A stretch of DNA of 64,000 bases from an uncultured bacterium (GTDB lineage Bacteria > Armatimonadota > Abditibacteriia > Abditibacteriales > Abditibacteriaceae): contig CAWJLW010000006.1 in NCBI GenBank assembly GCA_963843795.1, positions 2,988,375 to 3,052,374 on the forward strand, written 5' to 3'. Shown here in pieces: positions 11,171 through 60,053 of this stretch. Below the pieces are notes generated by a model. The model worked only from the letters and a program-made list of their open reading frames with translations, made no database searches and was not told the DNA's origin. Position 1 is the first letter of the stretch. Every line of letters begins with the position of its first letter. The position numbers were made by a program, and so were the translations under genes.

Positions 11171-12721
11171 ATGTCCACTTCTTCAGCGCCCAACTCCGCC
11201 AACTCTCAACCGATTTCGCTTTCTTTGCAACCCGTCAAGCTCGATCACGAGCGCATGATGGATTGCATTCACTGCGGCCTTTGCCTGTCGCAATGCCCGA
11301 CGTATGCCGAAGATGGCGTCGAGGCCGATTCGCCGCGCGGTCGCATTTATCTGATGCGTGCTCTGGCCGAAGGTCGCGTCGAGGCCACGCCGGACGTGAC
11401 CAAACATTTCGATTCGTGTCTGGGCTGTCGCGCCTGCGAAACCGCGTGTCCGTCCGGTGTGCAATACGGGCATTTGCTGGAAAATGTGCGCGCCCATTTG
11501 CGCGAGACTGCGCCCACACCGCTGAAAAAAAGTCTGATTATTCGCGCGCTGGAAAGCTCGTTTCCTTATCCCGACCGTTTGGATATGCTGTTGCTGCCGA
11601 TTCGCGCGCTGCGTAAAAGCGGTGTGATGAATTTGCTGCATCGCAGCGGATTCATGAAATTATTGGGCAATCTGGGCGCGATGGAAGGAATGTTACCCGC
11701 GCTTGGCCCGACGCGCGCGCATCGCAAGTTTGCAGAATCATTTGCAGCGCGCGGCGAACAGCAGGCACAAGTCGGAATGTTGACCGGTTGCGTGATGCCC
11801 GTAATGCAAGGTCATGTGAATGATGCCACAGCGCGCGTTTTAACTAAAGCCGGTTGCGCCGTCCAAGCACCCAAAAATCAAAGTTGTTGCGGTGCGCTAC
11901 ACGCGCATTCGGGCGATTTGAAGACCGCGCACGATTTGGCGCGCCACAATATCGAGTTATTTGAACAATGCGAACGCGAACACGGCGAGTTCGACGCAAT
12001 TATCGTGAACGCCGCCGGTTGTGGTGCGGCGATGAAAGAATACGAAGGCTGGCTGTCCGACGACCCGCAATGGAAAGAACGCGCCGAAAAGTTTTCCCAC
12101 AAAGTGCGCGATGTTTCGGAATGGCTGGCACAAAAGCCGTTTATGTCGCGTTTGGAAGAATTGATGCAGCCACATCCTGTTGCAAGTACTTGCAGCGCAT
12201 CTGTAAACGATATCGCTCGTGAAACCATACCCAACACCAGCGGTGCGACGACTGCGGGCAAGCCGCACGAAAGTGATGCCGTACGGCGCGAAGAAAAAAT
12301 CGCTGCCACGCCCGCCGATCAGCAAACCCTGCCGCCCAAAAACCAAGGCAAGCAAAAACCTTCCAGTGGTGAAATCATCACTTATCATGATGCGTGTCAT
12401 CTGGCGCACGGTCAGGGCATTCGCGTGCCGCCGCGCGAACTGGTGCAAAGCGCGGCCAATTCCGAAGGCATCGAAATGGTGCCTTTAAATGAAAGTGATA
12501 TGTGTTGTGGCAGCGCAGGCACTTACAACATTTTACAGCCGGAGATGGCGAATCGGTTGCTGGAGCGCAAAATGGAAAACATCCGGCGCACTGGCGCGCA
12601 AACCGTGGTATCGTCGAATCCAGGTTGCACGATGCAATTGAAAATGGGAGCGAAACAGTTCAAAGTTCCGGTCGAAATTCTGCATCCCGTCGAAGTTCTC
12701 GACCGTGCCACAGGTGAATAA
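11171..12721 (+). CDS. glcF: Glycolate oxidase Fe-S subunit GlcF-like (2x4Fe-4S plus 2 CCG domains)
   Basis: CIHCGLCLSQCP, SPRGR, CLGCRACETACPSGV, CCGAL, YHDACHLAHGQ, CCGSAGTYN. Confidence 0.85.
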   Translation: MSTSSAPNSANSQPISLSLQPVKLDHERMMDCIHCGLCLSQCPTYAEDGVEADSPRGRIYLMRALAEGRVEATPDVTKHFDSCLGCRACETACPSGVQYGHLLENVRAHLRETAPTPLKKSLIIRALESSFPYPDRLDMLLLPIRALRKSGVMNLLHRSGFMKLLGNLGAMEGMLPALGPTRAHRKFAESFAARGEQQAQVGMLTGCVMPVMQGHVNDATARVLTKAGCAVQAPKNQSCCGALHAHSGDLKTAHDLARHNIELFEQCEREHGEFDAIIVNAAGCGAAMKEYEGWLSDDPQWKERAEKFSHKVRDVSEWLAQKPFMSRLEELMQPHPVASTCSASVNDIARETIPNTSGATTAGKPHESDAVRREEKIAATPADQQTLPPKNQGKQKPSSGEIITYHDACHLAHGQGIRVPPRELVQSAANSEGIEMVPLNESDMCCGSAGTYNILQPEMANRLLERKMENIRRTGAQTVVSSNPGCTMQLKMGAKQFKVPVEILHPVEVLDRATGE

Positions 12722-12856
12722 ACGGCTGAGTAAAACAATTTTGAATTCACCGCGCAGGACGCAAAAATTTCTACAAAAAGAAACGGTTTGAATGTCCTGC
12801 AAGTACTTGCGGCTATGTTCAAAACGTGTGCGGTGAATTGTGATTGAGGTGAAATT

Positions 12857-13294
12857 ATGTCTGATTGGCCGATTTGGGATTTGGATGATGCCAACGCGAT
12901 GATTCCGCAATTAGTGGCGCTCACGCAAGACGCTATCGACCAGATTGCGCGTGCCGAACGCGCGTGGCACGGCTTGCCGTTTCGCACTTACGATGCGATT
13001 CGCGGCGCGACTCACGAAGACCTGATTCGCGCTGACTGGGCGCGCGCGGTCGCCAGTTTGGGCATACAGCCGCAAGCCTATTTCGTGGTCGCAATGCAAA
13101 GCATTGATGCTCAAACCCTGCTCTGTTGGAGCTACGGCGACACTCACATCACGCGCGAATTTTCCTGCTGGGAAACTTTCGAACATTGCCGCCGCATCTC
13201 CGATACCAACCGCTTTCGCTATCCCCAAGCTCCCGAAGATTCGCACCCCGAAGACGATCCATTGCGCGACGAATGGTTGCGCGACGAAACGTAA
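12857..13294 (+). CDS. Hypothetical protein, DUF2203-like
   Basis: WDLDDANAMIP...LLCWSYGDTHI...RRI pattern; GAGG RBS. Confidence 0.55.
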   Translation: MSDWPIWDLDDANAMIPQLVALTQDAIDQIARAERAWHGLPFRTYDAIRGATHEDLIRADWARAVASLGIQPQAYFVVAMQSIDAQTLLCWSYGDTHITREFSCWETFEHCRRISDTNRFRYPQAPEDSHPEDDPLRDEWLRDET

Positions 13295-13344
13295 AATCCG
13301 CTGTAAAACCAAAATGTGGCCGCACATTCGCTCTATGGTTTCAC

Positions 13345-14412
13345 ATGAGCGAAACCGTTAATCTCACACCCGATATTCAACACGCGCGCGCCGCATTCCG
13401 CGGTTTTCTCAACAATTGCGCGCCTGATGAAAGACTTCTGTGCTTGCACGATAGCGATGCAGATGGCATCACAGCGGGCGTTTTATGGCAGCGCGCACTG
13501 GAACGATTGGGCTATCGAAATTTAGTTCGCATCGCGCCCGACCGCGAGCGCAACGCGTGGACGAAAAGCAATCGCGCGCGTGTGAGCGAACTCGCGCCGG
13601 ACAAACTATTTCTGCTCGATTTAGGTTCGCAAACCCAGCGCGTTTTGCCAGATGTGCCGATGTGTATCATCGACCATCATCATCCCGAAGGTTGCCCGCC
13701 TGACGACACCTTGATTTCCGCTTACAGTTGGAGCCCAATTCCCAACACTTCGCTGCTTTTTTACAATTTGTGCGCGGATTTAGTCGATCTGTCCGACTTG
13801 GAATGGATTGCAGCGATTGGCACCTTCAGCGATCTGGGTGAAAAAGCGCCTTTTGAAATCGTCGCCAACGCGAAAAAGCAATATACCGCCAAATATCTGA
13901 AGGAAGCGACGGCGCTGGTCAATGCGTCGCGTCGCGCCGCCAACTACGATCCCGAAAGCGCCGCGCAAGCCTTACTAACGCATGATTCACCGCGTGAACT
14001 GGTGAATTCCGATTCCAACTCGGTGCAAGTACTTGCCACAGCGCGCGCGCAAGTCAAAGACGCTTTGAACGAAGCCAAAAAAGCCGCGCCAGTTTTCGCC
14101 GGTCAAGCCGCTCTCATTCGCACCCATTCGCCATGCCAAATTCATCCATTGATCGCGCAAATCTGGCGCTCGCGACTGCCCAAATATTTTGTGATGGCGG
14201 CAAACACCGGTTATTTGCCAAATCGCGTCAATTTTTCATGTCGTGGCGAAAATGTGCTGCAATGGCTGCGTAGTTTCGATTTGGGCATCGCACCTGAGGA
14301 AGAAAGCGGCTACGGTCACGGCCACGACGCGGCTTCGGGCGGCAGTTTGCCAGTTGAAAAATGGAATCTTCTGCTCGAAAAGATCGGCTTTCCCAACGAT
14401 GTGAAAGCGTAA
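13345..14412 (+). CDS. DHH/DHHA1 family phosphoesterase (RecJ-like)
   Basis: HDSDADG, LDLG, IDHH, GHGHDAASG. Confidence 0.85.
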   Translation: MSETVNLTPDIQHARAAFRGFLNNCAPDERLLCLHDSDADGITAGVLWQRALERLGYRNLVRIAPDRERNAWTKSNRARVSELAPDKLFLLDLGSQTQRVLPDVPMCIIDHHHPEGCPPDDTLISAYSWSPIPNTSLLFYNLCADLVDLSDLEWIAAIGTFSDLGEKAPFEIVANAKKQYTAKYLKEATALVNASRRAANYDPESAAQALLTHDSPRELVNSDSNSVQVLATARAQVKDALNEAKKAAPVFAGQAALIRTHSPCQIHPLIAQIWRSRLPKYFVMAANTGYLPNRVNFSCRGENVLQWLRSFDLGIAPEEESGYGHGHDAASGGSLPVEKWNLLLEKIGFPNDVKA

Positions 14413-14473
14413 AAACGCGTGGCAAGTACTTGCCACGAGGAATAATCGCGTATAAAAACGGGCATAATAAGCC

Positions 14474-15427
14474 ATGCGACAAAAATTACGCGTTGCCGAC
14501 TCGCTGATGTTAGCTCCGATTTTATTGATTGGTGGCGTCGGTTACTGGCAACAACAGCGCACGCAAAAAGACAATCAGCCCACGCGCATCGAAGTGCGCT
14601 CGCTAGAAGTTTTGCCACCCACACCAAGTGATGTGGCGCGCGGTTTCGATACGCGCGTGAAATTGAGCTTGGGTTATTTGGGCGCCCAACCGCGCGGTTG
14701 GGGCGTGACGGATTGGCAAAAATTTTCTCTGTCGCGCATTTCTCAACCCACAGTAGTTCCATCGAAAATTTCAAAGCAGAAAATTGAAGTGCGCGATGTC
14801 GAAAATCGTTTTGATGCGCGAAATGCGGTTTATATCGGAACGTATTTGATGAAGTTGCGCGCCGTATCGAACGATGTGCCAGTGGTATTGAGTGCCTCGT
14901 TCCAATCCTCCGAATTACAAAAAACACCGATGGGAACAGCATTGGTAATGAACATAGAGCGGGCTTTGAACTGGCGTGTTGTAGTGCGCCAAAAAGGTGT
15001 CAAAACATCGTCCCTAGCACCAGCCTCACATTTCAACGGTTTGAAATTGAAAAGCATTACATTGGATGATAAGCGCAAAGGCAAATCTTCGTGGAACTTT
15101 GATATTAGGGTAGTATGTGAACTCATACCTCCGCTTGTTGACGAACGCACGGTGTGGAGTCGCATCAGCCCCATGCACGGAGACATTTATTTAACCGATT
15201 CCAAAGGCCAACGCTTCAAAGGTTTGACTTATTCGCCGGTGATGAGAATTATTAATGACAAGGGTGAAATGGGATTAAGTCCTAAACAAGTGGAACTTTC
15301 TTTTTACTCTTGGGAAAATTTTCCAAAAGACACCAGTGACCTAACTTTTCACACGAAAATCAGCGTCGATGATTTGTGGCCGCTCGAAATCAAGGTTCCC
15401 ATCAAAGACATTCCGCCGTTTAGATAA
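14474..15427 (+). CDS. Hypothetical protein with N-terminal membrane anchor
   Basis: 317-aa ORF with hydrophobic LMLAPILLIGGVGYW; the 3' half is visibly more AT-rich. Confidence 0.65.
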   Translation: MRQKLRVADSLMLAPILLIGGVGYWQQQRTQKDNQPTRIEVRSLEVLPPTPSDVARGFDTRVKLSLGYLGAQPRGWGVTDWQKFSLSRISQPTVVPSKISKQKIEVRDVENRFDARNAVYIGTYLMKLRAVSNDVPVVLSASFQSSELQKTPMGTALVMNIERALNWRVVVRQKGVKTSSLAPASHFNGLKLKSITLDDKRKGKSSWNFDIRVVCELIPPLVDERTVWSRISPMHGDIYLTDSKGQRFKGLTYSPVMRIINDKGEMGLSPKQVELSFYSWENFPKDTSDLTFHTKISVDDLWPLEIKVPIKDIPPFR

Positions 15428-15534
15428 TTGCGCTGCAAGTACTTGCAGCGATAAGGAACCGCGTCAAGAATAAACGTCACTACTGCGCTGTCAATTTGTC
15501 ATAATCACCCGAAATTTAAAAGACAAGGAAAAAC

Positions 15535-16794
15535 ATGCAATTGAATCGCAACACGGGCGCGCTATTGGGCGCAGCTTTTATCGCTATTGCGCCGCTTCAC
15601 AGCGTGCGGGCTCAGGACGACACTAAAGCGGCCAACGACGCGCTGATGCAAAACGCCGCAGTGCAAAAAGTCGAACAGGTTCCCAATATCAAAAAAGGTA
15701 GCGTCGGCGAAGGCGTGCCGAATTTTACGGTGCGCGCCGGTTATCGCGTCACGCTGGCTTCGCCCGATTTGGGGGAAGCGCGTTTTATGGAATGGGATGA
15801 TAAGGGCACACTGTTCGTCTCACAACCCAACCGAGGCAAAATTATCGCCTTGACCGATAAGAATAAAGACGGCGTCTACGATGCGCCGACCGATTTCATC
15901 ACCGATAAAAACTCCGCGCACGGCATGCACTGGCACAACGGCTGGCTGTGGTTCACGCAGAGCGGTGCCATTTACCGTGCGCGCGACACCAATGGTGATG
16001 GCAAAGCCGATGAAGTCGTGACCGTCATTCCCGATGGGGAACTGCCCAAAGGCGGCCACTGGTGGCGCTCGATCTTGGTCACCGACAATGGCTTTTTCAC
16101 TTCGATTGGCGATGGTGGCAACGCTTCAGATCAAACCGATACCGACCGCCAGAAAATCTGGTTTTATTCCTTAGATGGCAAAACGAAAAAGTTGTGGGCG
16201 AGCGGAATTCGCAACACGGAAAAGCTGCGCTTCCGTCCCGGCACGACCGAATTGTACGGCAGTGATCACGGCAGCGATGATTTTGGTAAAACCTACGGTG
16301 AAAAAGACGCCGCGAACAAGCCCATCACCGACCGCATTCCGCCCGAAGAATTTAATTATTACCAGGAAGGTCATTTCTACGGTCATCCGTTCATCATTGC
16401 GCTGGGCATTCCGCGCCCCGAGTTCGCCGACCGTCCCGACATTCTGGAATTGGCCGCGAAAACCACCGCTCCCGCGTGGAATATGGGACCGCACTGGGCC
16501 GTGAACGGTTGGACTTTTACTACGAAAAACACGCTGGGCAACGCTGGCGACGCTTACATGGCTTCGCATGGTTCGTGGAACAGCAGTGTGAAATCGGGCT
16601 ATCGCATCGAGCACATCATGTTCGACGACATGACCGGTAAGCCGATGGGCGCGCAATTGATGGTTTCCACGCTTACGCCTGACGGAAGAAACAATCTGGC
16701 GCGTCCGGTCGATTGCTTGGAAGCTCCCGATGGCACGTTGTTGTTTTCCGACGATCAAACCAATCGCGTTTATCGCTTGTCGCGCGAGAAATAA
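15535..16794 (+). CDS. Secreted PQQ-dependent glucose/sorbosone dehydrogenase-like beta-propeller
   Basis: Signal peptide, GGHWWR, GIRN, PPEE, HGSWN, RPVD...APDG.LLFSDD. Confidence 0.85.
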   Translation: MQLNRNTGALLGAAFIAIAPLHSVRAQDDTKAANDALMQNAAVQKVEQVPNIKKGSVGEGVPNFTVRAGYRVTLASPDLGEARFMEWDDKGTLFVSQPNRGKIIALTDKNKDGVYDAPTDFITDKNSAHGMHWHNGWLWFTQSGAIYRARDTNGDGKADEVVTVIPDGELPKGGHWWRSILVTDNGFFTSIGDGGNASDQTDTDRQKIWFYSLDGKTKKLWASGIRNTEKLRFRPGTTELYGSDHGSDDFGKTYGEKDAANKPITDRIPPEEFNYYQEGHFYGHPFIIALGIPRPEFADRPDILELAAKTTAPAWNMGPHWAVNGWTFTTKNTLGNAGDAYMASHGSWNSSVKSGYRIEHIMFDDMTGKPMGAQLMVSTLTPDGRNNLARPVDCLEAPDGTLLFSDDQTNRVYRLSREK

Positions 16795-16806
16795 ACTGAC
16801 ACTTCC

Positions 16807-17448
16807 ATGAAACTGCACGCTTTCTGGCCCCATTGTCTGGGCATTTTCGCTTTGTCCGTCGCTTTACGCGGCGGGCAAAGTGCGCCGGTTCGCTATCAAC
16901 CGTTGCAAGCGCCGACCGAAAAAGCTGAAATCAAAACCGCGTTTGCTGCAATGGATTACTACGGCAATCATTGTGGCCGCTGTCATGGCATCGAAGGCGC
17001 GAATTACGACACGCAGAGTTTGAAAAAACGCGATGCGATTTCGCTGCGCACCGTCACCGACGAAATGGCCAAAGGGCCGGGACAAGCGCCACTGGAAGCC
17101 GAACAACTCGACGCAGTGACAGCGTGGCATCAAGCGTTTATCGCAGGCAAGCCATTTGTTAGCGTGACCGAAATTCAGCGCGAAGGCAGCAAAATTCAAC
17201 TCAAAGGCGAAGCCACATCGGATGCAAAAATTGAATTAAGTTGCACGACGACGCCCGATGCGCCTCAAGTACTTGCGCCCCGCGAAGGCACAATGTGGAG
17301 CGCGCAGTTGCCTGCCGACACAGATTTATCGACGTTGCAAGTACTTGCTACTAAAGGCGACAGCCAAACACTGTTGAAGTTAGATGGTGCGGCTTACTCC
17401 TACGCTCAGTCCAATAAAACCGAGTCAAACTCAACTGAACCGAAGTAA
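16807..17448 (+). CDS. Secreted monoheme cytochrome c domain protein
   Basis: Signal peptide, CGRCH heme motif, candidate distal Met; starts 12 nt after the dehydrogenase. Confidence 0.75.
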   Translation: MKLHAFWPHCLGIFALSVALRGGQSAPVRYQPLQAPTEKAEIKTAFAAMDYYGNHCGRCHGIEGANYDTQSLKKRDAISLRTVTDEMAKGPGQAPLEAEQLDAVTAWHQAFIAGKPFVSVTEIQREGSKIQLKGEATSDAKIELSCTTTPDAPQVLAPREGTMWSAQLPADTDLSTLQVLATKGDSQTLLKLDGAAYSYAQSNKTESNSTEPK

Positions 17449-17467
17449 TTTTTTTGCCCCAGAGCCA

Positions 17468-17503
17468 CAAAAACCTCCTGCAAGTACTTGCAGGAGGTTT
17501 TTG
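17468..17503. terminator. 36-bp perfect palindrome with A/T tails between convergent genes
   Basis: caaaaacctcctgcaagt|acttgcaggaggtttttg. Confidence 0.65.
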
Positions 17504-17515
17504 GCGTTTTCACAT

Positions 17516-18496
17516 TCAATAATCGCCGGTCGCGTATTTCAGTGGTTGCGCCAGATAACCTTGCGCGCGTAGATCGCGTGCAAATTCTGCGTCGAAACCG
17601 TGCGTGGTGTAAATTGTACCCGCGCCGCTGAGGCCAACGTACGCCATCAAATCGTCGTAGCCCGCGTGGTCGGAAAGCGGAAACGCTACGTCAGTGCCGA
17701 AACGCCATTTCGCGCCCGCGTCCATCGCCCAGCCCGAAACATACGCGGTTTTCAAAGAGTGCGCGCGGCTCAATTCCTTAAACCAGCGGCCGCGCTGACA
17801 GCCCGACGCGCACAACAAAACGCCATCGAAATCGTCAATTTTGCTTTCGTCATACAAGCGATAATCGGGAAATTCGACGCCCAGTTTTCGATATAAATTT
17901 GCCATTTTCCAGTGCGCGTCGTGCAAATAAATCGGTGCATCGAAACCTTTCAAACCGGCCAGAACTTCCTGCCCTTTTCCCAAACTGTAACAGAATACGA
18001 CCGGACGCGAACCCGTATTCAAAACGCTGCGACACCAACGCGCGATGTCGTCCAAAACGCTTTGATTGTCGGGAAAACGATAATGCGGACGGCCAAAGGT
18101 CGTCTCCATAATCACAATATCGGCACTGGGAACTTCAGCAATTTCCGAACTCAATGAAGGTCGCAATTTGAAATCGCCGGAGTAAAGCAATTTCATGCCT
18201 TCGTGTTCGACCAAAACCTGACTCGAACCCAGCACATGACCCGCAGGCCATAAGCTGAAACTGCCGCCGCCATCGCAGTAAACCGACTGCCGGAAATCGA
18301 CATGGCGAAACTGCGTGCGACGTGCGCCACGCAATTGCATCATCGCAGCCGTCGCGGGCGTGGCAACCACTTCGCCATGCTTTTTCATGTGGTCGGCGTG
18401 CGCGTGGGAAACGATAGCACGCGTCCGTTCTCGATGTGGATCGAGCCACAAATTCGTGGCGGGCAAATGCACGCCGTCGTTATAAAGTACTTGCAT
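17516..18496 (-). CDS. MBL-fold beta-CASP nuclease (ligase-associated DNA damage response exonuclease-like)
   Basis: SHAHADH, AGHVLGS, SGDFK, ETTFG, LSDHA, THG. Confidence 0.82.
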   Translation of the reverse strand: MQVLYNDGVHLPATNLWLDPHRERTRAIVSHAHADHMKKHGEVVATPATAAMMQLRGARRTQFRHVDFRQSVYCDGGGSFSLWPAGHVLGSSQVLVEHEGMKLLYSGDFKLRPSLSSEIAEVPSADIVIMETTFGRPHYRFPDNQSVLDDIARWCRSVLNTGSRPVVFCYSLGKGQEVLAGLKGFDAPIYLHDAHWKMANLYRKLGVEFPDYRLYDESKIDDFDGVLLCASGCQRGRWFKELSRAHSLKTAYVSGWAMDAGAKWRFGTDVAFPLSDHAGYDDLMAYVGLSGAGTIYTTHGFDAEFARDLRAQGYLAQPLKYATGDY

Positions 18497-19828: not shown

Positions 19829-19913
19829 TCGAATCAAGTTCACCGCAAGTGCTTGCACTGGCAAGTACTTGCTATAACGATTGTGCCAGTCAGGGAATTT
19901 AATACAAGAATTT

Positions 19914-20870
19914 ATGAACAACGAAATTTGGTTGTGGGTCGGCTTCAATCTGTTTGTGCTGGCGATGTTAGCGCTCGATTTGGGCGTGTTTCATCGTCAG
20001 GCGCACGAAGTAAAGATCAAAGAAGCGTTGGGCTGGAGCGCGTTGTGGATCGGGCTTTCGCTGGTGTTCAATCTCATCGTGTGGCGCTGGCGCGGCTCCG
20101 AAGTGGCGATGGAATTTCTCAGCGCATATTTGCTAGAAAAAGCCTTGAGCGTAGATAACATTTTTGTCTTCATTATCATCTTTTCCTACTTCAAAGTACC
20201 CGCAATTTTACAGCACAAAGTACTTTTCTGGGGCATTATCAGCGCGCTGGTTATGCGCGCGGCTTGTATTGCGGCAGGCATCACGCTTCTCAAGCAATTT
20301 CACTGGCTTATTTATGTTTTCGGCGCGTTTCTCATTCTCACCGGTATCAAGATGGCTTTGAGCAAAGGTAAGGAGATTGATCCCGGAAAAAATCCGATTT
20401 TGAGCTTGCTGCGCCGATTGTTGCCGGTGACCGATGGATACGAGGGCGACGAAATTTTTCGTACGTCGCGATGCGCGATTATGGGCGACGCCATTATTTG
20501 TCACCCTGATTTTCATCGAGCTGACCGATCTGGTGTTCGCTGTCGATTCGATTCCCGCCGTGCTTTCGATTACACAAGACCCGTTCATCGTTTACACCTC
20601 GAACGTTTTTGCGATTTTAGGTTTGCGCGCGCTGTATTTTGCGCTGGCCGGTGTGATTGGCTTGTTCCATTATTTGCATTACGGGCTTTCCGCCGTGCTG
20701 GTTTTCGTGGGTATCAAGATGTTGATAACCGATCTTTACAAAATGCCCATCACAGCTTTCACTTTCGGTTATTATGGGCATTTTGTTGTTTTCTATCGCG
20801 CTATCGTTTCTGCGCCCACCAACCCAGAACCCCCATTGCTGAGAAAAAAGAGCCGGAAATTTCCGAGTAG
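19914..20870 (+). pseudogene. terC: TerC/Alx family metal homeostasis membrane protein with apparent frameshifts
   Basis: YLLEKALSVDNIFVF in frame 1, [27 protein letters not shown] in frame 2, and the last [18 protein letters not shown] in frame 3. Could be a pseudogene or sequencing error. Confidence 0.75.
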
Positions 20871-23770: not shown

Positions 23771-24769
23771 TCACCGTCGTTCGAGATAAAAAAGGCAGAA
23801 AAGTTCGCGTTCGTCCAACCATTTTTCGCGCACTTTCCAGCCCGCATTTTCCGCCATTCGCGTAAAAACCTGCGGCGCGTATTTATGCGAATGCTCGGTG
23901 ACGATAATTTCCTCATCGGCAAAATCAAAGGTTTGCCCATCAAGCGAAACCGTTTGCGCGCCCCGAGCGATCAATTGCATTTCGATGCGGCTATTGGCTT
24001 CGTCCCAAATGGCGCGATGCTCGAAACGACTGACATCGAAATCGCCGCCCAACTCTCGATTAATGCGCTCGAGCAAATTCAAATTAAAATTCGCCGTCAC
24101 ACATTTGCTATCGTTGTAAGCGGCTTCAAGTACTTGCACATCTTTTTTCAAATCAATGCCGATGAGCGCGCCGCCTTCGCCTTGGCAAACCTGCGCCATG
24201 CGTTCTAAAAATTGCTGTGCCCGCGCGCGCGTAAAGTTACCCAGTGTCGAACCAGGAAAATAAGCGACTCGCCGACTGGCGCCTTCGATGCGAGGCAAGC
24301 TGAATTCGCCAGTGTAATCGGCACAAATCGGCACGATATTCAAATCGGGATACTCGTTTCGCAGCGCGCGCGCCGATTCCTGCAAATGCGCGCCGGAAAT
24401 ATCCAGAGGCAAATACGCCTGCGGTCGCAAATCGGCTTTTTCCAGCGCATCCAACAAAATGCGAGTTTTGGTAGAAGAACCCGAACCGTATTCGATGAGA
24501 GTGCTGCGCGGGCCGATACAGCGCGCCATCGCGTCGCCGTGTTCGCACATAATCGCAGCTTCAGTGCGCGTGACGTAATATTCGTCCAATTGGCAAATCT
24601 GGTCGAAGAGCTGCGAGCCGCGCGCGTCGTAGAAGTATTTGCAGGGCAAAGTCTTGGGATTTTGCGCTAAACCTTCAACGGCATCGCGCAAAAATTCGGC
24701 GCGTTGGGTGGCAGTTTCATCGCTTATTTGCTGGTTGATGGGCGCGACGGCGACAGGTGCAGTGTTCAT
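23771..24769 (-). CDS. egtD: L-histidine N-alpha-methyltransferase
   Basis: KTLPCKYFYDARGSQLF, EYGSGSSTKT, FPGSTLGNF, AAYND, TEHSHKY. Confidence 0.92.
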   Translation of the reverse strand: MNTAPVAVAPINQQISDETATQRAEFLRDAVEGLAQNPKTLPCKYFYDARGSQLFDQICQLDEYYVTRTEAAIMCEHGDAMARCIGPRSTLIEYGSGSSTKTRILLDALEKADLRPQAYLPLDISGAHLQESARALRNEYPDLNIVPICADYTGEFSLPRIEGASRRVAYFPGSTLGNFTRARAQQFLERMAQVCQGEGGALIGIDLKKDVQVLEAAYNDSKCVTANFNLNLLERINRELGGDFDVSRFEHRAIWDEANSRIEMQLIARGAQTVSLDGQTFDFADEEIIVTEHSHKYAPQVFTRMAENAGWKVREKWLDERELFCLFYLERR

Positions 24770-24846: not shown

Positions 24847-26205
<1,359 letters not shown>

Positions 26206-27771: not shown

Positions 27772-28923
27772 TTAGCGTTCGCCCTGATTATCGCGCTGCA
27801 CGTCAGGGCGCGCATCGGGACGGCGCGCAGGTTGGTTTTTGCGGTCGAACTGCACCAACGGATTGTCGGGCGAACCCAGCGGTGCCTGATTTTCTTTGGT
27901 TTCGCTGAATGGTGCCACTTCATTTTCGCTTGCTTCGCTTAGACTGGGACGCTGCGAAAAAATCGGGCGGCGCGGATAAACCGGACGGGGGCGTGGCGTG
28001 GCTGGCGCATCATCGACTGCGGACGCAGCATCGACTGCGGACTCATCGCTTGCGGGCACAGCATTGGTGGCTGGCCGAGTTGTTGGTGTTGGAATACTGG
28101 GCGCTTGCGTACGTGGCGTTTGTCGTCGGGGCGTCGAACTTCTGCTCACAGATGATTTTGTCGCCAGAGCATCGCGATGAGGCGCAACGGAGGGTTCGTC
28201 ATCGCGCGCAGAAACGGGCGGAGTGACATCGTGCAAATGGTAGGTGCCGCCCGCGTTATCGGCGCTGAGCTGTCCACCTTCCAAGCGCACCACGCGGCGG
28301 CGCTGCTGATTGACGATTTCACGGTCGTGCGTGGCCATTACAATCGTCGTTCCGGTCGCGTTGATGCGTTCCAGAACTTCGATAATATCGGCGCCGGTTT
28401 TAGGATCGAGATTGCCGGTCGGCTCATCGGCCAGAAGTACTTGCGGGTTGTTGACAATGGCGCGCGCAATCGCGACGCGCTGTTGTTCGCCACCCGAAAG
28501 TTGGTGGGGATGCGCTTTGGCCTTATTTTGTAAACCGACGGTTTCGAGTGCACGCGGCACATCGCGCACCAGCGATTTTTGCGGCGCGCCGATAACTTGC
28601 AGCGCGAATGCAACGTTTTCCCAAACGGTTTTCTGCGGCATCAAGAGAAAATCTTGAAACACGACGCCCATTTTGCGACGCAAAAAGGGAATATCGCGCA
28701 AGGGCAAACGTGTGATATCGCGGTCGTCCACCCAAACTTGGCCGCTCGCAGCGTGCGCGCCGCCGTAGATGAGCTTGAGCAAAGTACTTTTGCCGGCACC
28801 TGAGGGGCCGACCAGAAAAATCCATTCGCCGCGCTCGATTTTCAAGTTAATTTTTTCCAGCGCGGAAATGGGATAGCGTTCGTCGGGTTGATAACACACC
28901 GACACATCACGAAATTCAATCAC
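27772..28923 (-). CDS. ftsE: Cell division ATP-binding protein FtsE with long C-terminal tail
   Basis: GTG start [44 protein letters not shown]; upstream of ftsX. Confidence 0.9.
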
Positions 28924-32080: not shown

Positions 32081-33259
32081 ATGACTCAACCGCGCGCGAT
32101 TGTAATTTTAGGCTCGACCGGCTCGATTGGTCGTCAGGCGCTTGAAGTCGCGCGTGCTCTGCCCGACCGCTTGCGTGTCGTGGGCTTAGCCGCGCATTCC
32201 AACTGGGAACTTTTCGCCCAACAGTGCGCCGCGTGGCAGCCGCAAATCGCCGCGATGTCGGACGAAAACGCTGCTCAGAAGGCGCGCGATTTGTTGAAAG
32301 AATTGGCGCCACAAACCACGCTGCAAGTACTTGCAGGACCAGAAAGCATTTATCAGGCCGCAACATTTAACGAAGCCGATTTGGTTTTGGGCGCGATGTT
32401 GGGAGCAGCGGGCTTGGGACCAACGATTGCGGCCATCGAAGCTGGAAAAGATATCGCGATTGCCAACAAAGAAACCCTGGTCGCCGCGGGCGAAATCGTT
32501 GTCGCGTTGGCCAAAAAACACGGCGTGCAACTGTTACCGGTCGATAGCGAACATTCGGCGATTGCGCAATGTTTGGTGGGCGAAGACGAGCGCGTAGTCA
32601 GTCGTTTGACGATTACCGCATCAGGCGGGCCGTTCGTCGATACGCCGCGCAGCGAGTTGGAAAGCGTGAGTCCGGAGCGCGCCTTGAAGCATCCGACGTG
32701 GGCGATGGGCCGCAAAATCACCATCGATTCAGCCACTTTGATGAACAAAGTTTTGGAATGCATCGAAGCGCGCTGGCTGTTCGATATCGACATGAAATTT
32801 ATTGACGTCGTGGTACACCGACAAAGCATCGTGCATTCTTTGGTAACTTTTTCAGACAATTCCGTTAAAGCGCAGTTGGGCGTGCCGGATATGCGCTTGC
32901 CAATTCAGTGGGCTTTAACGCATCCCGACCGTGTGACGGGCGCGGCTCCGCCTTTGGATATTTTTTCGATGGGGCCGCTAAGCTTTGAAACGCCCGATGT
33001 CGAGCGCTTTCCGAGTTTGAAACTGGGGCGTCAAGTTATGGAAAGCGGTGGCACGCATCCATGCGCGATGAATGCCGCGAATGAAATTGCGGTCGAAGCG
33101 TTTTTGGATGGACGCACCAGCTTTTATGGCATTATTGGTTGTATCGAAGCGGTTTTGGAACGACACGAAGTCGTATCGCGTCCCACAGTGGACGATATTA
33201 ATCACGCCGATACTCAGGCCAGACACCTGGCGCAGCAGTGGCTCGACGCACAAATTTAA
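32081..33259 (+). CDS. dxr: 1-deoxy-D-xylulose-5-phosphate reductoisomerase
   Basis: LGSTGSIG, ANKE, LPVDSEHSAI, TASGGPF, HPTWAMG.KITIDSA. Confidence 0.96.
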   Translation: MTQPRAIVILGSTGSIGRQALEVARALPDRLRVVGLAAHSNWELFAQQCAAWQPQIAAMSDENAAQKARDLLKELAPQTTLQVLAGPESIYQAATFNEADLVLGAMLGAAGLGPTIAAIEAGKDIAIANKETLVAAGEIVVALAKKHGVQLLPVDSEHSAIAQCLVGEDERVVSRLTITASGGPFVDTPRSELESVSPERALKHPTWAMGRKITIDSATLMNKVLECIEARWLFDIDMKFIDVVVHRQSIVHSLVTFSDNSVKAQLGVPDMRLPIQWALTHPDRVTGAAPPLDIFSMGPLSFETPDVERFPSLKLGRQVMESGGTHPCAMNAANEIAVEAFLDGRTSFYGIIGCIEAVLERHEVVSRPTVDDINHADTQARHLAQQWLDAQI

Positions 33260-36701: not shown

Positions 36702-37997
36702 TCAGCGCGGCACTTCGCCTAGCACGAAAAATGAACCGGTCACCAAAATCAAATCTTTTTCATCGGCAATTTGTCTCGCGCGTTCGAGCGCCGCACCGAC
36801 TTCGGACACGACCTCCACAACCGCATGGGGCCGCATTTCCCTGCGCGCTTCAGTAGCAAGAAATTGCGCATCAAGGGCGCGCGGATGTTGGGCTTGGGTA
36901 GCAATTAACACATCGACCTCCGGTGCAAGTATCTGCAGCATAGCTTGATAATCTTTATCTGCGCTAACACCGACTACCAAAATCACACGCTGCCATTCGC
37001 TGCGGCGTGTGGCAAGTACTTGCAGCAATTGTTCTACGCCGTCGGGATTATTGGCACCATCGACGACAATATCGGGCGCGCGATGGATGAACTCAAAACG
37101 GCCCGGAACACTCGCGAGTACTTGCGCTGGCGTTTCTTCTTCGAACTGCCAATCCATTTCCTGACAAAATGCGGCAGCGGCCATGCGCGCGGTTTGCAAG
37201 TTCAAACGTTGAAATTCGGGAGCATTGGGCTCAGGCAACTGTGCAACTTCGTTCCAGACGCGGGAACAATTTTCCAAATCGTTAGAAAATTCGAGAGCTC
37301 GGAAGGGCCACAAACGCGCGCTGATGTTGTCACAGTGTTCTCGAAAGATCGCAAGTACTTGCGGCTTGGTTTCGGCAGTCAAAAGAACGCGTTGTGGTCG
37401 GGCGATGCAGATTTTATCCGCAGCGATGAGTTCGATTGTATTGCCCAAGCGGTCGCAATGATCGAGCGCGACGTGCGTGATAACCGAAAGCACGGGTTCG
37501 GCAGCGTTGGTCGCGTCCCAGCGTCCGCCCAACCCAACTTCGACGACGGCTGCATCGACGTTTTGACGCGCGAAATGCCAGAAGGCTAAAAACGTCAGGG
37601 TTTCAAATTCGGTTGGCTGCTCGAGCGCACTTTCGACCGCGTTCAAATGCGGCAGGGCGTCCTGAAAAAGCGTTTCCAACGCGGCATCGGAAATCGAGCC
37701 GGAAAACAATTGGTTGTCGGCTTGTTGCGCCTGAATGATGCGCAAGCGCTCGTTCCAACGATAAAGATGTGGTGAAGTGTAAAGCCCGATGCGGCGATGG
37801 TGAGCGGCGAGCAAAGTCGCGAGAAATTGCGCGGTCGAGCCTTTGCCATTGGTGCCGCCGACGAGAATGGCTGGGTAAGAATTGATTGCGGACGCAATGG
37901 GCCGGGTTTCGAGCAGTGCGCGAATGCGTTCTAAGCCCGGACGAATGCCAAAGCGCTGCACACTGTCGAGATAAGCTGAAAATTTGATATTTGCCAT
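36702..37997 (-). CDS. folC: Folylpolyglutamate/dihydrofolate synthase
   Basis: GTNGKGST, YTSPHL, EVGLGGRWDATN, LDH..LG, PGRFE, VTGSFF. Confidence 0.93.
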   Translation of the reverse strand: MANIKFSAYLDSVQRFGIRPGLERIRALLETRPIASAINSYPAILVGGTNGKGSTAQFLATLLAAHHRRIGLYTSPHLYRWNERLRIIQAQQADNQLFSGSISDAALETLFQDALPHLNAVESALEQPTEFETLTFLAFWHFARQNVDAAVVEVGLGGRWDATNAAEPVLSVITHVALDHCDRLGNTIELIAADKICIARPQRVLLTAETKPQVLAIFREHCDNISARLWPFRALEFSNDLENCSRVWNEVAQLPEPNAPEFQRLNLQTARMAAAAFCQEMDWQFEEETPAQVLASVPGRFEFIHRAPDIVVDGANNPDGVEQLLQVLATRRSEWQRVILVVGVSADKDYQAMLQILAPEVDVLIATQAQHPRALDAQFLATEARREMRPHAVVEVVSEVGAALERARQIADEKDLILVTGSFFVLGEVPR

Positions 37998-45620: not shown

Positions 45621-45672
45621 CAAAACTAAAAAAGCGCGCTGCAAGTACTTGCAGCGCGCTTTTTTAGTTTTG
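45621..45672 (+). terminator. 52-bp perfect palindrome with T tail ending the two-gene transporter operon
   Basis: caaaactaaaaaagcgcgctgcaagt|acttgcagcgcgcttttttagttttg. Confidence 0.72.
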
Positions 45673-52388: not shown

Positions 52389-52404
52389 GGGGTTGAAAAA
52401 GATT

Positions 52405-52701: not shown

Positions 52702-52748
52702 AAAACTGCCCTGCACGTACTTTCGGCAAGTACGTGCAGGGCAGTTTT
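52702..52748 (-). terminator. 21-bp-stem hairpin built from degenerate motif copies
   Basis: aaaactgccctgcacgtactt-tcggc-aagtacgtgcagggcagtttt. Confidence 0.7.
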
Positions 52749-52776
52749 TTATCGATTTCGTGTTTGGCTTTGCGTT

Positions 52777-54408: not shown

Positions 54409-54502
54409 AATTCACCTCTGATTTTGTGACTCACACCAGATCGCAAGTACTTGCAGCAAGTAATCGCCGGAAGCTTGTGCGTTGGAAGATTGAAATTTGA
54501 AA

Positions 54503-55597: not shown

Positions 55598-55660
55598 AAA
55601 TTCTCCGAATACTCACGGCTGCAAGTACTTGCAGCCCCAACTTAACTTACCGATTGACAA

Positions 55661-56716
55661 TTAACGCCCGTCGCTTTTCACACTGCGTACAAAAACATCT
55701 TCCAGCGTTTCGGTGTGACCTTGCACATCGAGCGTGCGCGCGTCGCAATCGCGGATGAATTTCAATACGTCGTCCAATTCTTCGCTCGAGTCGGCGTGGA
55801 AACGAATGTGGCCGTTTTCTTTTTGCCATTGAGGTGCATTGGCCTGCTGCAAGGCTTCATCAGCGAAATTAGTGGCAAAAACTTCAAAGCTTTGGCTCGG
55901 CCCGACGAGTTCGGGAACCGTTCCAAACTTCACTAACTTGCCTTCGCTTAGAATCGCCACCCGGTCGCAAATCGCCTGCACATCGGCCAGCAAATGCGAA
56001 CACAACAAAACGGTTTTACCTTGATCGCGCACAGCCAGGATCGCGTCTTTCATCTGACGCGCGCCAATCGGGTCGAGACCGGTCGTGGGTTCGTCCAAAA
56101 ACAACAGTTCAGGATCGTTAATGAGCGCTTGCGCCAAGCCGACGCGCTGCATCATACCTTTGGAATAAGTGCGAATCACGCGCGAGCGGTCGGCTTTGTT
56201 GAGGCCGACCATATCGAGCAGTTCTTCTTTGCGCTCGTCGCGGCGCGCGCGGTCGTATCCGAACAATTTGCCGTAGAAATCGAGCACTTCGTACGAGTTG
56301 AGATGGTCGTAGAAATATGGGCCATCGGGCAAGAAGCCGATGCGCTGTTTCACGGCCACATCGCGCGGGCCGCGTCCAAAGATTGAAATCGTGCCCGAAG
56401 TCGGTTTAATTAAACCGAGCAGCAATTTCAGCGTCGTGGTTTTGCCGCTACCGTTAGGGCCGACCAGACCAAAAATTTCGCCGCGCTTCACATCAATCGA
56501 CAATTCTTCCAAGGCGGTTTTGCCGCTGCGCGAGAAAGGTGCGCGATAAGTTTTGCGCAGTTTTTGCGTTTGAATGATAATGTCGCCCTGACCCTCGGCT
56601 ACGGGCGCATTGGGTGTGAGAACTGCTTTGGGTTGAACGTTTTCTGATTCCATCGTGATTTCCGCGTTGCCAACTGAACTGCCAACTGTTGCGTCTGGCG
56701 TAGTTTGATTCGCCAT
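55661..56716 (-). CDS. ABC transporter ATP-binding protein (exporter type)
   Basis: GPNGSGKTT, YSKGMMQR, LDEPTTGLD, SHLL. Confidence 0.92.
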   Translation of the reverse strand: MANQTTPDATVGSSVGNAEITMESENVQPKAVLTPNAPVAEGQGDIIIQTQKLRKTYRAPFSRSGKTALEELSIDVKRGEIFGLVGPNGSGKTTTLKLLLGLIKPTSGTISIFGRGPRDVAVKQRIGFLPDGPYFYDHLNSYEVLDFYGKLFGYDRARRDERKEELLDMVGLNKADRSRVIRTYSKGMMQRVGLAQALINDPELLFLDEPTTGLDPIGARQMKDAILAVRDQGKTVLLCSHLLADVQAICDRVAILSEGKLVKFGTVPELVGPSQSFEVFATNFADEALQQANAPQWQKENGHIRFHADSSEELDDVLKFIRDCDARTLDVQGHTETLEDVFVRSVKSDGR

Positions 56717-56960
56717 GAGCGCGCCTCCAAAAGTAAAAAATAAAAATAATTTCGCTGATGCGACGTATCAGTATTCACAACGTTGCGCACTCTCGTGCAC
56801 TTCGGTTGCATCCTGTTTTGCGGCGCATTGAATCGCAGCGTCGCGCGTTTCAAATTACCCCGTAGCACACGTTTTCTAACTCGCCCAGTTTACGAATACG
56901 CACGCTGACGCGCAGACGCGAAAAGGCCCTGCAAGTACTTGCAGAGCCTTGAAAGGACGT

Positions 56961-58109
56961 TCAAACAGTCAATTCTCGGTAAAAATCGTAGATTTGGCGC
57001 GTGCCTTCGGCGATATGAAAGCGCTGCGAAACGCTGGGCCGCGAATGTTCGCGCAAATGTTCCAGCAGCACATTATCAGTCAAAATACGGCACATTGCGT
57101 GCGCCAGACTGTCAGTTTCATCGGGCGAAACCAGCAGTCCATCGTGCTCATGATTGATAATTTCCAGCGGGCCATTCTTGGCATAGGCAATAACGGCTTT
57201 ACGCATCACCATGCCTTCGATTAAGACGCGCCCGAACGGTTCTTCTTTCGAGGCGAGCACAACTGCATCCAGAGACGAAATCGCTTCGACGTTGTTGTTC
57301 TGGTGTGGCACGAAATGAAAACGGTCGTCCAATTTATGATGCTTGACGCGCGCGTGCAACGATTTCACATAACCAGCGTGCTCGCTCCACAAATCGCCAC
57401 CCATAATGACGAAACGGGCGCGGTCGCATTTATCATTGGCGCAAACTTTGGCCGCTGCGTCGATGAAATCAAGGTGATTCTTCCACGGCACCAGTTGGCC
57501 TACACAACCGAAAACAAAAGCGTCGGGCGCAAAATTCAAAGCATCGCGAAATGTGTGCGGTTTGGCGGCGGGCGGATGCGTTTGCCACTTGTCGGGGTCG
57601 ATGCCGTTGCGCACGATACGGATTTTCTGCGGCGGAACGCCATCGCGCTGCAAGGCTTCGGCAACACAGCCCGAAATCGCGATCACCAGCGTCGCGCGTT
57701 GCGCTAGTTGCGACCCAATGCGCGCCAAATTCACCATATCGCGCGCGTGCCAAATCGTGGGAATTCCCAAACGTTCGGCAGCTAATCCGCCCACCAGATG
57801 CGCGGTCGTCGAATTGGAATGCACAACTTGTGCGTTTAAATTACGCGCCAGCCTCGAGATGTGCGGTGCGGTTTGCAAAACGTGCGCGAGCGTGGTCAAA
57901 CCAGAAATAAAATTGGTCGGGCGCTGCAAACGACGCAGCGGCACAAAGCTGACCGCCCAACCTTCGTCGCGCAACTGATCGGCAAATGGCCCGCTGCTTG
58001 GCAAAGCGATGGTCGCGTCGATGTCGTCGTGCGAGCGGCGCAATTCGTGCAACAACGCATGCAACGACTGCTCGCCACCACTGATCTGCGAAGTGTGATC
58101 GAGATACAA
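56961..58109 (-). CDS. Glycosyltransferase family 4 (start ambiguous)
   Basis: SGGEQS, VRNGID, VGQL.PWK, EPFGRVLIEGM. Confidence 0.9.
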   Translation of the reverse strand: MYLDHTSQISGGEQSLHALLHELRRSHDDIDATIALPSSGPFADQLRDEGWAVSFVPLRRLQRPTNFISGLTTLAHVLQTAPHISRLARNLNAQVVHSNSTTAHLVGGLAAERLGIPTIWHARDMVNLARIGSQLAQRATLVIAISGCVAEALQRDGVPPQKIRIVRNGIDPDKWQTHPPAAKPHTFRDALNFAPDAFVFGCVGQLVPWKNHLDFIDAAAKVCANDKCDRARFVIMGGDLWSEHAGYVKSLHARVKHHKLDDRFHFVPHQNNNVEAISSLDAVVLASKEEPFGRVLIEGMVMRKAVIAYAKNGPLEIINHEHDGLLVSPDETDSLAHAMCRILTDNVLLEHLREHSRPSVSQRFHIAEGTRQIYDFYRELTV

Positions 58110-58289
58110 AACTTGAATTTTTTCATCTCTCTGCTTTTGGGTCTCGAAAATAGCACACCTCCCAAATCATCAATGCAATCGTCTCTGCGTGCTTTCATCC
58201 TAACACGTTCAAATTTCACCCGGCGTCACAGAGATTTCAGACATTAATCGAGCCAGCAAGTAGTTGCTGAACTTCACGTTCTTACATCC

Positions 58290-60053
58290 TCACAATTCGA
58301 GCACTTCGTCCAGCCACTGTTGCGAATGCGCGATGACTTCGTTTTCCCATTCCAGCCCGTAATACGAATGATTGGCACCTTCAATAAGATGTGAATAAGC
58401 TTGCGGTTGTTGCTCTCGATACCACGCCAACGCTTCGGTCGTCGTAGGGTCGGCGCTACCATAAACCAGCAACAGCGGACGATGAGCGCGATTCCAGCGC
58501 GCGAAACCACTCAGCGCGCTTTCGCGCCAACCGCGCGGCAGTTGGCCGGGCGCGTCCGATTCGATATTTCTGCTTTCGCCGCCCTTGCTACTCATCACCT
58601 GCGCCACGCGCGAAGCATCGACTTCGCCGCGCAGCAAACGTTTATAAGTCGAAAAACTCAACAGCTTATGCGCGTATTTTTTCAAATTCGCCACGCGTTT
58701 ACGCGCATCGCGCGCGCCCGAACCACGCGCTGCAACAATCGGCGCGCTCCACAGAATCATCGCCGCCACATCGCTTTCCAGCGCGCCGACTGCTACTTCG
58801 CAGCCCGAACACAAACCCAGCAACACAATCGGTGCATCGCTTTGTTCGCGACACCACTTCATCATATCGCGTGCGTCATCGGCCATCGTCGCTAAAGTCG
58901 CCAGTTCGGTTCGCCCGTCGCTATCGCCGCGTCCAGCGAAATCAAAGCGCAACAGGTTATAATCGTCTGTCCAACGCCGCGCCGCGCGCGCCAACATTTG
59001 GTGCGGGCCGGTTCGGTAACCGCTCCAACCATGCAGCATTACAATCGTTGCGCGCGCCGTTTTCGCCCCGTTTTGCGCCAGATGCCAGGTCGCCACCAAG
59101 CGCTCATCACGCCGGTTGCTCACAATCAGCGCCCGTTCACCGTTGCAAGTACTTGCAGAGCGCCGTGCAACATTTTCGTGATCGCAAGTACTTGCAGCGG
59201 GCGCAATGGCGCTTTCTTCTGGGAAAATTTGTGCCCACAATTTTTCACTGGGCGCGTGATCGAGCAAATTCCAAAACGGTTGTGCGACAATCGCACTCGC
59301 GGAAATCTGACGCGCTTCGCACCAGTTTTTCAACGCATTGGACACTTCGCTTCTGGCACCGATTTGAAAAACCTGCACGCGCATCGATGCGGGCCAGTTG
59401 CGCTCATTTTCCAAATCTAAAGCCCGTAAATCGGCCTGCAATTTTTCGCCAATTGGCCAACCATCCAAATCGAAAACATCCGATTCGCTATTCGGAATTT
59501 GCGACGTTTTGGCTTGGGCGTTATCGTTGGGATTGCCTTCTTGGCTGGTAATTTTGGCGCGCAATTTTTGGCGCATCGCCATTTCGCTCCAATAGCGTTG
59601 CCCACTGAGAATCGGCTCCAGCAAAATTACGTGCTTCAAACTGTCACGCCAAGAATCCGTTTGCGAGTTCGCGTTGTTTTCACCCGAAATTTGCGCCGCT
59701 AAAGCAGCACCCAGACGAACACCAAGCAAGCCCAACGGCGCATTGGGCACACGGCGACGCACTTCTTCGATAGCGCTTAAAATATCGTCGCGCCAATTAT
59801 CGAGAGTTTGTTGAGCGAAGTCGCCGCAACTATCGCCCGCGCCCCGCGCGTTGAACAATAAAACGGCGTGACCGCGTGCGGCCAGCCAGCGCGCGCCTTC
59901 GTTCAAGGTACGACGCGCGCTTTTGTCCTCCTCGCCAAACGGCGCACAAAATATCCAAACCTGTCGGATATTTTGCTGAGGCGCGTGCCATACGCCGGAC
60001 AACATAGCCTGCGGGCCAAAGAAAAAGTGTTCCAGACGGGTCGAATTTTCCAC
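58290..60053 (-). CDS. Fused tandem alpha/beta hydrolase (exosortase-associated hydrolase 2-like plus hydrolase 1-like)
   Basis: Domain 1: PFGEE, GAGDS.G, GVRLGA, PFW. Domain 2: YRTGPHQ, RFDFAGRGDSDG, GLCSG, GANH. Confidence 0.78.
   Translation of the reverse strand: MENSTRLEHFFFGPQAMLSGVWHAPQQNIRQVWIFCAPFGEEDKSARRTLNEGARWLAARGHAVLLFNARGAGDSCGDFAQQTLDNWRDDILSAIEEVRRRVPNAPLGLLGVRLGAALAAQISGENNANSQTDSWRDSLKHVILLEPILSGQRYWSEMAMRQKLRAKITSQEGNPNDNAQAKTSQIPNSESDVFDLDGWPIGEKLQADLRALDLENERNWPASMRVQVFQIGARSEVSNALKNWCEARQISASAIVAQPFWNLLDHAPSEKLWAQIFPEESAIAPAASTCDHENVARRSASTCNGERALIVSNRRDERLVATWHLAQNGAKTARATIVMLHGWSGYRTGPHQMLARAARRWTDDYNLLRFDFAGRGDSDGRTELATLATMADDARDMMKWCREQSDAPIVLLGLCSGCEVAVGALESDVAAMILWSAPIVAARGSGARDARKRVANLKKYAHKLLSFSTYKRLLRGEVDASRVAQVMSSKGGESRNIESDAPGQLPRGWRESALSGFARWNRAHRPLLLVYGSADPTTTEALAWYREQQPQAYSHLIEGANHSYYGLEWENEVIAHSQQWLDEVLEL

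Follow-up and report, generated by a model that had tools for sequence, protein, structure and literature searches.

A palindromic 12-mer iterated throughout an Abditibacteriaceae genome and its possible role as a DNA uptake signal

The motif in the window and in the genome

The window analysed here is a 64-kb stretch (64,000 nucleotides; contig CAWJLW010000006.1, positions 2,988,375 to 3,052,374 of the forward strand) from an uncultured bacterium of the family Abditibacteriaceae (Armatimonadota), and the element in question is the palindromic 12-mer GCAAGTACTTGC, which is present there in 46 exact copies from 540 to 62302 with soft CTG/CAG flanks. The studied genome (4.30 Mb, 53% GC) is designated G000, and other G-numbers refer to the genomes of its relatives. 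Among named sequences, its Dxr is closest to those of Abditibacteriaceae MAGs. Altogether 2,567 exact copies were counted on both strands of G000, with 506 one-off copies in addition, against 0.07–0.65 copies expected from Markov models of order 2–5; the iteration is real, far above chance, and extends well beyond the window. The window was without match in Rfam. Genes of G000 were predicted with a purpose-built dicodon caller, the motif being masked during its training and no annotation being used outside the window, which resulted in 3,532 genes and 85.6% coding DNA. In this gene set 830 copies (32%) are located in genes, 1,733 are intergenic, and 4 sit on edges, corresponding to densities of 0.23/kb in genes versus 2.8/kb between them.

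The preliminary description of the window had reported 12 exact in-frame copies, eight of them read as QVL and four as ASTC. All 12 places and frames proved right, only 10 of them being exact 12-mers, since the copy of the CxxCH protein gene at 17265..17276 (plus strand; PQVLA) and that of egtD at 24126..24137 (minus strand; VQVLE) are mismatched at the first base and exact only over the 10-mer CAAGTACTTG. The other QVL copies belong to the DHH-like gene (14025..14036, plus; VQVLA), again the CxxCH protein gene (17337..17348, plus; LQVLA), egtB at residue 154 (25736..25747, minus; LQVLA), the length-variable loop of dxr (32323..32334, plus; LQVLA), and folC twice (37012..37023, minus, LQVLA; 37351..37362, minus, PQVLA). 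The label "DHH" is weak, its Pfam match being below the cut-off, and so is "cytochrome c" for the CxxCH protein, which has the CxxCH sequence only and no Pfam match. Near-copies for which QVL had also been claimed do encode it, namely the one-off copy of folC (37114..37125, minus; AQVLA) and the two-off copies of ftsE (28433..28444, minus; PQVLL) and of the start of the metallo-beta-lactamase (MBL) fold nuclease gene (18483..18494, minus; MQVL).

The ASTC copies, described earlier as lying in apparent linkers or loops, are indeed so placed: in the glcF-like gene (12182..12193, plus) at residue 338 between domains (29–326 and 402–512), in egtB (25093..25104, minus), where residue 368 belongs to a variable loop, and in the fused hydrolase (59145..59156 and 59184..59195, both minus) at residues 324 and 311, between the domains 34–293 and 331–606. 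The last gene (58290–60125) joins exosortase-associated hydrolase 2 and hydrolase 1 domains through this linker with its two motif copies. That the 5.2-kb gene, arc, ispG, and amtB are free of copies, as the preliminary description had also pointed out, is not significant alone (joint P = 0.12).

Throughout G000 the codons of the motif are strongly over-used: CAA GTA CTT encodes 548 of the 910 QVL tripeptides versus 0.35% expected, AAG TAC TTG encodes 210 of the 326 KYL tripeptides versus 4% expected, and the motif accounts for 133 of the 149 ASTC, codon use in the control permutations VQL, LVQ, and QLV being at expectation. The peptides themselves are inflated as well (QVL 910 against 328 expected; ASTC 149 against 3.7 expected). 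Equality of the CAA-GTA-CTT frequency with the product of codon frequencies had been named in advance as evidence contrary to motif conversion; the observed excess is about 170-fold. All three frames are used by the 652 gene-core copies (QVL 422, KYL 134, ASTC 96), so the view that the KYL frame never occurs fails genome-wide, and its apparent exclusion in the window (0 of 12; P = 0.06) is a sampling effect.

Site origin, dialects, and phased flanks

Proteins of G000 were aligned to parts of four genomes, namely G001 (200 kb), G003 (420 kb), G009 (440 kb), and G006 (180 kb), a site being regarded as gap-free if no gap lay within three residues, and one site may recur across genomes. Gap-free alignments made up 18/22, 27/37, 23/34, and 19/22 for G001, G003, G009, and G006, in total 87 of 115; five smaller sets, mostly concerning the Dxr loop, gave 5 of 12 and were excluded from this total. 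The ortholog alignment proposed earlier for telling substitutions from insertions thus returned mostly gap-free substitutions, and insertion of the motif as a fixed-length unit was rejected, a 4-residue gap being found in only 2 of the 115 alignments. The QVLA site of EgtB (residue 154) is gap-free across 119 homologues in a column of the 12th conservation percentile, and the ASTC site (residue 368) belongs to the 3rd percentile and adjoins residues absent from 97–98% of these homologues. At the folC copy 37012 the same columns of G001 contain AAA GTA CTT, the core of its own dialect; at the copy 37351 G001 has PQILE, also gap-free. The variable Dxr loop reads LQVLA in G000, EYS in G009, G012, G015, and G019, and STVDFNGT in G006.

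The density of in-gene copies depends on protein identity to relatives, with 0.27–0.30/kb at 40–60% identity, 0.125 at 70–80%, and none in the 19 kb that encode proteins with 80% identity or more. Two metagenome species known as contig sets, JAABUK and JAABUM (median protein identity to G000 about 60%; 62–67% GC), have a looser nCAAGTACTTGn form with more than 1 AGTACT per kb at loci that were picked by motif. In them 13 of 26 and 11 of 24 G000 sites have a copy in identical register, with 0.02 expected. Different dialects also meet at G000 site columns in 5 of 60 G001 sites (0.56 expected), 4 of 22 G006 sites (0.22 expected), and 2 of 97 G009 sites versus 0.68 expected. Metagenome matches to G000 were only about 70% identical. 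The sites are old and maintained across species.

The exact 12-mer of G000 occurs 0–3 times in each of 40 relatives, and its core AGTACT exceeds 750/Mb in only 6 of 401 genomes of the phylum, all from the family of G000, the highest value outside being about 350/Mb. Six other genomes of the class possess their own dialects around an AGTAC core: the loose CAAAGTACTTTG in G001, TCGAGTACTCGA in G009, G015, and G019, CGAGTACTCG in G012, and the non-palindromic AGTACGGTCGAW in G006, where 1,169 forward and 1,204 reverse copies (2,373 together) were counted, with 0–4 copies in the 30 remaining genomes of the class. Within ten 20-kb stretches of one G006 contig, 200 kb in all, 144 arms form inverted pairs overlapping at AWWT, and 54 arms have a partner with at least two mismatches (26 plus and 28 minus); the paired form is a 26-bp hairpin with GTAC ends. 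One G006 arm agrees in 14 of 17 bases with the extended Haemophilus uptake signal sequence (eHin-USS) as given in PMC12616744, a comparison chosen post hoc.

In a FastTree phylogeny of ten markers, whose deep branches are weak, the genomes with the motif are not monophyletic: the deepest branches are those of G000 and G001, and the motif-free G017 is the sister of the motif-rich G012. An ancestral system with subsequent losses would be the simpler reading of this tree. Only 1–126 AGTACT each were found in 17 genomes of two other genera. Extreme avoidance of AGTACT was observed in the genera g2 and g5 (e.g., 1–15 copies in the 4–6 Mb of G005, G042, and G013), which avoid GTAC and CTAG as well and look like the mirror image of motif-rich genomes. 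Inverted repeats of REP type (repetitive extragenic palindromes) unrelated to the motif were seen as CACCAGCCACGTCC pairs in G016 (L142) and as GGGCGCAGCATGCTGCGCCC in L002.

The signal is longer than 12 bp. In G000 AA/TT dinucleotides peak at about 14, 24.5, 35, and 45 bp on either side of the dyad, and the A/T flanks of in-gene copies are phased at 10.5 bp in the same way as those of intergenic copies; the 10.5-bp power in 646 in-gene copies reached 157 versus a maximum of 3.2 in 300 frame-matched control sets, in all three frames. Copies lacking the first tract still show the second peak (z = 8.7), and autocorrelation across the genome amounts to only about 3%. The same phased tracts are present in G009; among the loose dialects they are weak in G001 and not clear in JAABUK and JAABUM. 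Close pairs of motifs are likewise spaced at a 10.5-bp period (104 pairs; reached by 0 of 5,000 jittered sets). The phased flanks indicate that bent duplex DNA is recognised, rather than RNA or peptide.

The copies are spread evenly and flatly along the chromosome, the variance/mean ratio in 5-kb bins being 0.58 (under-dispersed), with no spectral peak between 0.5 and 300 kb and no replichore or leading/lagging bias in G000. Density in genes is 0.10–0.17/kb at less than 1 kb from an intergenic copy versus 0.34–0.43 at 1.5–3 kb, a 2–3-fold reduction, and near motif-empty intergenic regions it is not reduced (0.24–0.40/kb). The two largest deserts, 26 kb each, are islands rich in insertion sequences with transposases, one of them with a type I restriction system, and low-GC genes have 0.09 copies/kb versus 0.24; several motif gaps of 7–9 kb contain ordinary genes. 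Near tRNA and tmRNA genes of G000 the motif lies within 100 bp in 24 of 48 cases, and inside them in none.

Between genes the density is 4.86/kb in convergent versus 1.81/kb in divergent regions. Arms of at least 7 bp surround 64% of copies in convergent regions and 25% of co-oriented ones, forming strong hairpins at a median of 28 nt past the stop codon. In the window one intergenic copy forms the centre of a perfect 70-bp palindrome at 4130..4200 (33-bp stem as RNA), another belongs to a terminator-like hairpin between convergent genes at 17467..17503, and a third occupies the loop of a terminator-like hairpin that has A and T tracts, at 45621..45672. Nevertheless, terminator use is secondary, since only 4 of 436 copies in G009 form long hairpins. 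On contig C6 of G000 tandem 12-mer dimers were noticed at the centres of perfect palindromes, in 12 places at spacing 12 and in 4 at spacing 10; these dimers, and perfect arms reaching up to 33 bp, suggest that hairpins at the motif are corrected by template switching. In-gene copies, too, are slightly enriched in extended symmetry.

A candidate uptake signal and its rivals

The earlier proposal that near-matches are converted into the motif wherever the protein tolerates it is supported by the gap-free sites, the placement in variable proteins, and the codon excess, with the KYL frame being used too; we infer a converting process, which may be uptake bias, binding-site selection, or repair. 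The preference for a DNA-level role over a purely terminator one is upheld likewise, because gap-free sites, bias to variable proteins, phased in-gene flanks, and the scarcity of long hairpins in G009 all place the role at the DNA level. The reading preferred here, with a rough probability of one half, is that the 12-mer would be the core of a genome-wide double-stranded DNA signal, likely a species-specific uptake sequence accumulated by biased uptake and recombination. It would likely serve the type IV pilus competence machinery. G000 encodes ComEC, ComEA, DprA, PilB/PilT-type ATPases, prepilin peptidase, minor pilins, and secretin. A surface receptor would favour fragments with the signal, and their recombination would ratchet near-matches to the consensus via point changes, with protein-level selection leaving copies only at tolerant positions and frames. 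Intergenic copies would afterwards be recruited as the loop of hairpin terminators, and a shift in receptor preference would re-spell old sites, so giving a dialect to each species. By analogy with HIP1, methylation of the shared GTAC core may assist this process.

Several observations weigh against the uptake reading. The gene set of the pil operon is essentially alike in motif-bearing and motif-free relatives and ComEC is found in 30 of the 31 genomes of the class, so the presence of competence genes does not follow that of the motif. Among 20 relatives, of which three have a partial operon on the contig, the pil operon showed no extra receptor pilin of ComP or PpdA/ComN type, this comparison covering the pil operon out of the 39 prepilin-like genes of G000. 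In the assembly of G000 pilC, pilD, and two pilin-type genes are frameshifted, which for the pil operon makes assembly error and decay indistinguishable, because 21 of 289 other genes of this genome are also frameshifted. The forms of G000, G001, G009, G012, G015, and G019 are palindromic (the G006 arm alone being non-palindromic), and neither the known DNA uptake sequences (DUS) nor the known uptake signal sequences (USS) are, according to PMC12616744. The single base by which the G006 arm differs from the USS 9-mer lies inside the essential GCGG core. Phased tracts reach 4–6 turns on both sides, beyond the two tracts of the USS, and this would fit an intracellular DNA-wrapping protein too. 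In-gene copies show no mutual repulsion at short range, and relative-side gaps amount to 9–29% at sites versus 5–7% in the background, an excess that would be expected of loops.

The pil operon itself (L537:2799-16100, i.e., G000:C6:385799-399100) has unusually long minor pilins (300–700 aa) family-wide, and its last gene, of 1,200–1,500 aa, is conserved across the family.

The main rival would make the motif the target of a dimeric protein inside the cell, one that bends or wraps some 100 bp of DNA (a nucleoid organiser or a preferred topoisomerase site), with selection keeping about 1 site per 1–2 kb. A symmetric periodic cleavage motif is characteristic of gyrase. The dyad symmetry with symmetric phased tracts, the helical spacing of close pairs, the top density in convergent regions, the gap filling between intergenic copies, and the cross-species conservation of sites all agree with such a protein, and selection with a chromosome role has been argued for HIP1 (PMC5861425). 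On the other hand, dialects are quickly re-spelled between close species, G017 is free of the motif despite its motif-rich sister, the G006 dialect occurs as lone arms, long-range periodicity and leading/lagging difference are lacking, and pair spacing can follow simply from shared tracts. No candidate protein was found. The GyrA-type gene is single and of similar length in genomes with or without the motif, length and copy number being compared, and none of the candidates checked tracks the motif. Taken together, the bending protein is considered unlikely, with a real share of support left to it.

An improbable explanation is that the GTAC core is marked by a methyltransferase, with adjacent bases being converted through methyl-directed repair or recombination, as in the HIP1 model of Elhai. 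GTAC is indeed present in every dialect, HIP sequences co-occur with methyltransferases for their inner site and methylated HIP1 aids transformation according to PMC4390886 and 10.1101/2024.09.10.611283, respectively. An orphan beta-class adenine methyltransferase (DPPY; C6:2517365-2518135, L215:5365-6135) near rdgB, rph, and murI belongs to all 7 motif-bearing genomes; the same enzyme, however, is encoded by 14 of 24 motif-free ones (21 of 31 in the class; 56–75% identical). Its closest solved relative, also in the putative target-recognition stretch, is M.RsrI, and the M.RsrI target GAATTC is not contained in the G000 motif. No C5 or D12/Dam methyltransferase was found in G000, where besides the orphan only type I/IIG-like N6 enzymes are present, and GTAC outside the motif is depleted (observed/expected 0.58). 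Moreover, repair at a 4–6 bp site leaves the tracts 25–45 bp away and the gap filling unexplained. Quite improbable is a tiny repeat, mobile or of REP/Ssn type, that a nuclease or transposase would spread and that is tolerated in frame since 12 bp equal four codons, as the G006 hairpin with GTAC ends, the 12 tandem dimers on the main contig, some gap excess near sites, and the extra residues adjoining the EgtB ASTC copy might suggest. The rare 4-residue gaps, the register kept across species while flanks are re-spelled, and the even, unclustered spacing speak against it, and a Y1 transposase is represented by one weak fragment in G000 and none in G006, with small single-domain GIY-YIG proteins of Ssn type absent from both (hits only in frames of 450–672 aa). 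REP/RAYT and Ssn systems were rejected as the source, there being no fitting gene in G000 or G006 and copies being common in genes and evenly spread. Hardly credible is an RNA element acting as the loop of intrinsic terminators, with in-gene copies as by-products: the hairpins past stop codons in convergent and co-oriented regions agree with it, but 830 copies lie inside genes, two in-gene copies examined fold no better than shuffles, long hairpins are rare in G009, and helical phasing is a feature of duplex DNA.

Relation to known repeats and minor observations

As a candidate member of their class, the motif behaves like DUS and USS on every genomic feature tested except palindromy. To our knowledge, just two families, both proteobacterial, have established sequence-specific uptake signals, the system being known mainly from Neisseria and Haemophilus. 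What HIP1 does has been under debate for 30 years. Pasteurellaceae USS (Hin-USS AAGTGCGGT) resemble the motif in a short core with A/T tracts phased along the helix (PMC12616744), copy numbers in the thousands, a frame bias, tripeptide inflation, terminator co-option, and dialects with a fixed inner core. They differ in several ways: the core in G000 is perfectly palindromic and has tracts on either side, the shared core is AGTAC here and GCGG in USS, and the phylum is another one. The ComP-dependent DUS of Neisseriaceae share the location of about a third of copies in genes (34.5% in N. meningitidis according to PMC2817400, close to the 32% of G000), permissive positions, scarcity in acquired DNA, species dialects around a core, and inverted pairs in terminators, as in G006; the association with intrinsic terminators, a trait of DUS and USS, is present in G000 and G006 and rare in G009. 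In contrast to the motif, DUS are non-palindromic and without phased tracts, their paired copies do not overlap (PMC3630211) whereas G006 pairs overlap at AWWT, and no ComP equivalent was found in the pil operons; this comparison is also drawn from 10.1101/2025.10.24.684340, and further literature drawn on comprises 10.64898/2026.06.24.734251, PMC11893778, and PMC13756078.

HIP1 (GCGATCGC) and alternative HIPs are likewise hyper-iterated palindromes used in all frames and conserved between genomes, with lineage-specific palindromic extensions. Compared with HIP1, the motif has 12–16 bp rather than 8–10, is 12-fold denser between genes than within them, has faster dialect turnover with a non-palindromic sister dialect in G006, and shows neither a C5 methyltransferase in G000 nor long-range periodic spacing. 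With REP/RAYT and NTS/Ssn repeats it shares abundant palindromes past stop codons and, in G006, hairpin-forming pairs, but its copies are evenly spread, common in genes, and mostly substitutions, and neither G000 nor G006 yielded a full-length gene resembling RAYT or Ssn. Unlike Chi/KOPS it has no strand polarity, being palindromic in G000 and balanced among the lone arms of G006.

No description of the Abditibacteriaceae motif was found in print among the titles and abstract beginnings of the matches listed, supplements being outside this scope and a large k-mer survey table being able to list such words, and no paper was found containing the 12-mer. Tentatively, Abditibacteriaceae may possess a third, independent group of species-specific uptake signals, whose dialects would switch between HIP1-like palindromes and a USS-like non-palindrome converged on the Haemophilus signal, so that HIP1, DUS, and USS might be one phenomenon shaped by DNA bending into the pilus pore. 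The family offers a natural series in which palindromic dialects, both strict and loose, stand beside a non-palindromic one and beside motif-free sisters with the same competence genes. This series allows profiling for the motif-reading protein, tests of drive versus selection, and the question of whether palindromic HIPs are uptake sequences. If the reader is instead an intracellular DNA-bending protein, an organiser with thousands of sites rewriting the proteome would be equally unusual.

Some further observations concern the surroundings of the motif. In the window the McsB/McsA protein-arginine kinase pair (889-3019) and a Pup-type proteasome ATPase (6917-8740) are less than 8 kb apart, and in a TerC/Alx-family gene (19881-20870) the match ends at residue 197, the gene being possibly frameshifted. 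A simple scan of G000 for CRISPR turned up none. The 68-kb phage contig IMGVR_UViG_3300009514_000019 (L399, L444; about 40% GC, with primase and DnaB), alongside two related-looking contigs (L380, L407), contains 20 copies of the 12-mer as RTGCAAGTACTTGCAC; those inspected are situated at gene junctions, several just 5′ of a ribosome-binding site, and the contig has no DNA similarity to G000. In this phage the 12-mer is probably an operator. Finally, MWW contigs (e.g., L319:1896-4301; 53% GC) with no match to G000 have its exact dialect, and the 801-aa protein encoded there, mobile-element-primase-like with no Pfam match, contains VQVLA near its start, which suggests that resident mobile elements acquire the motif.

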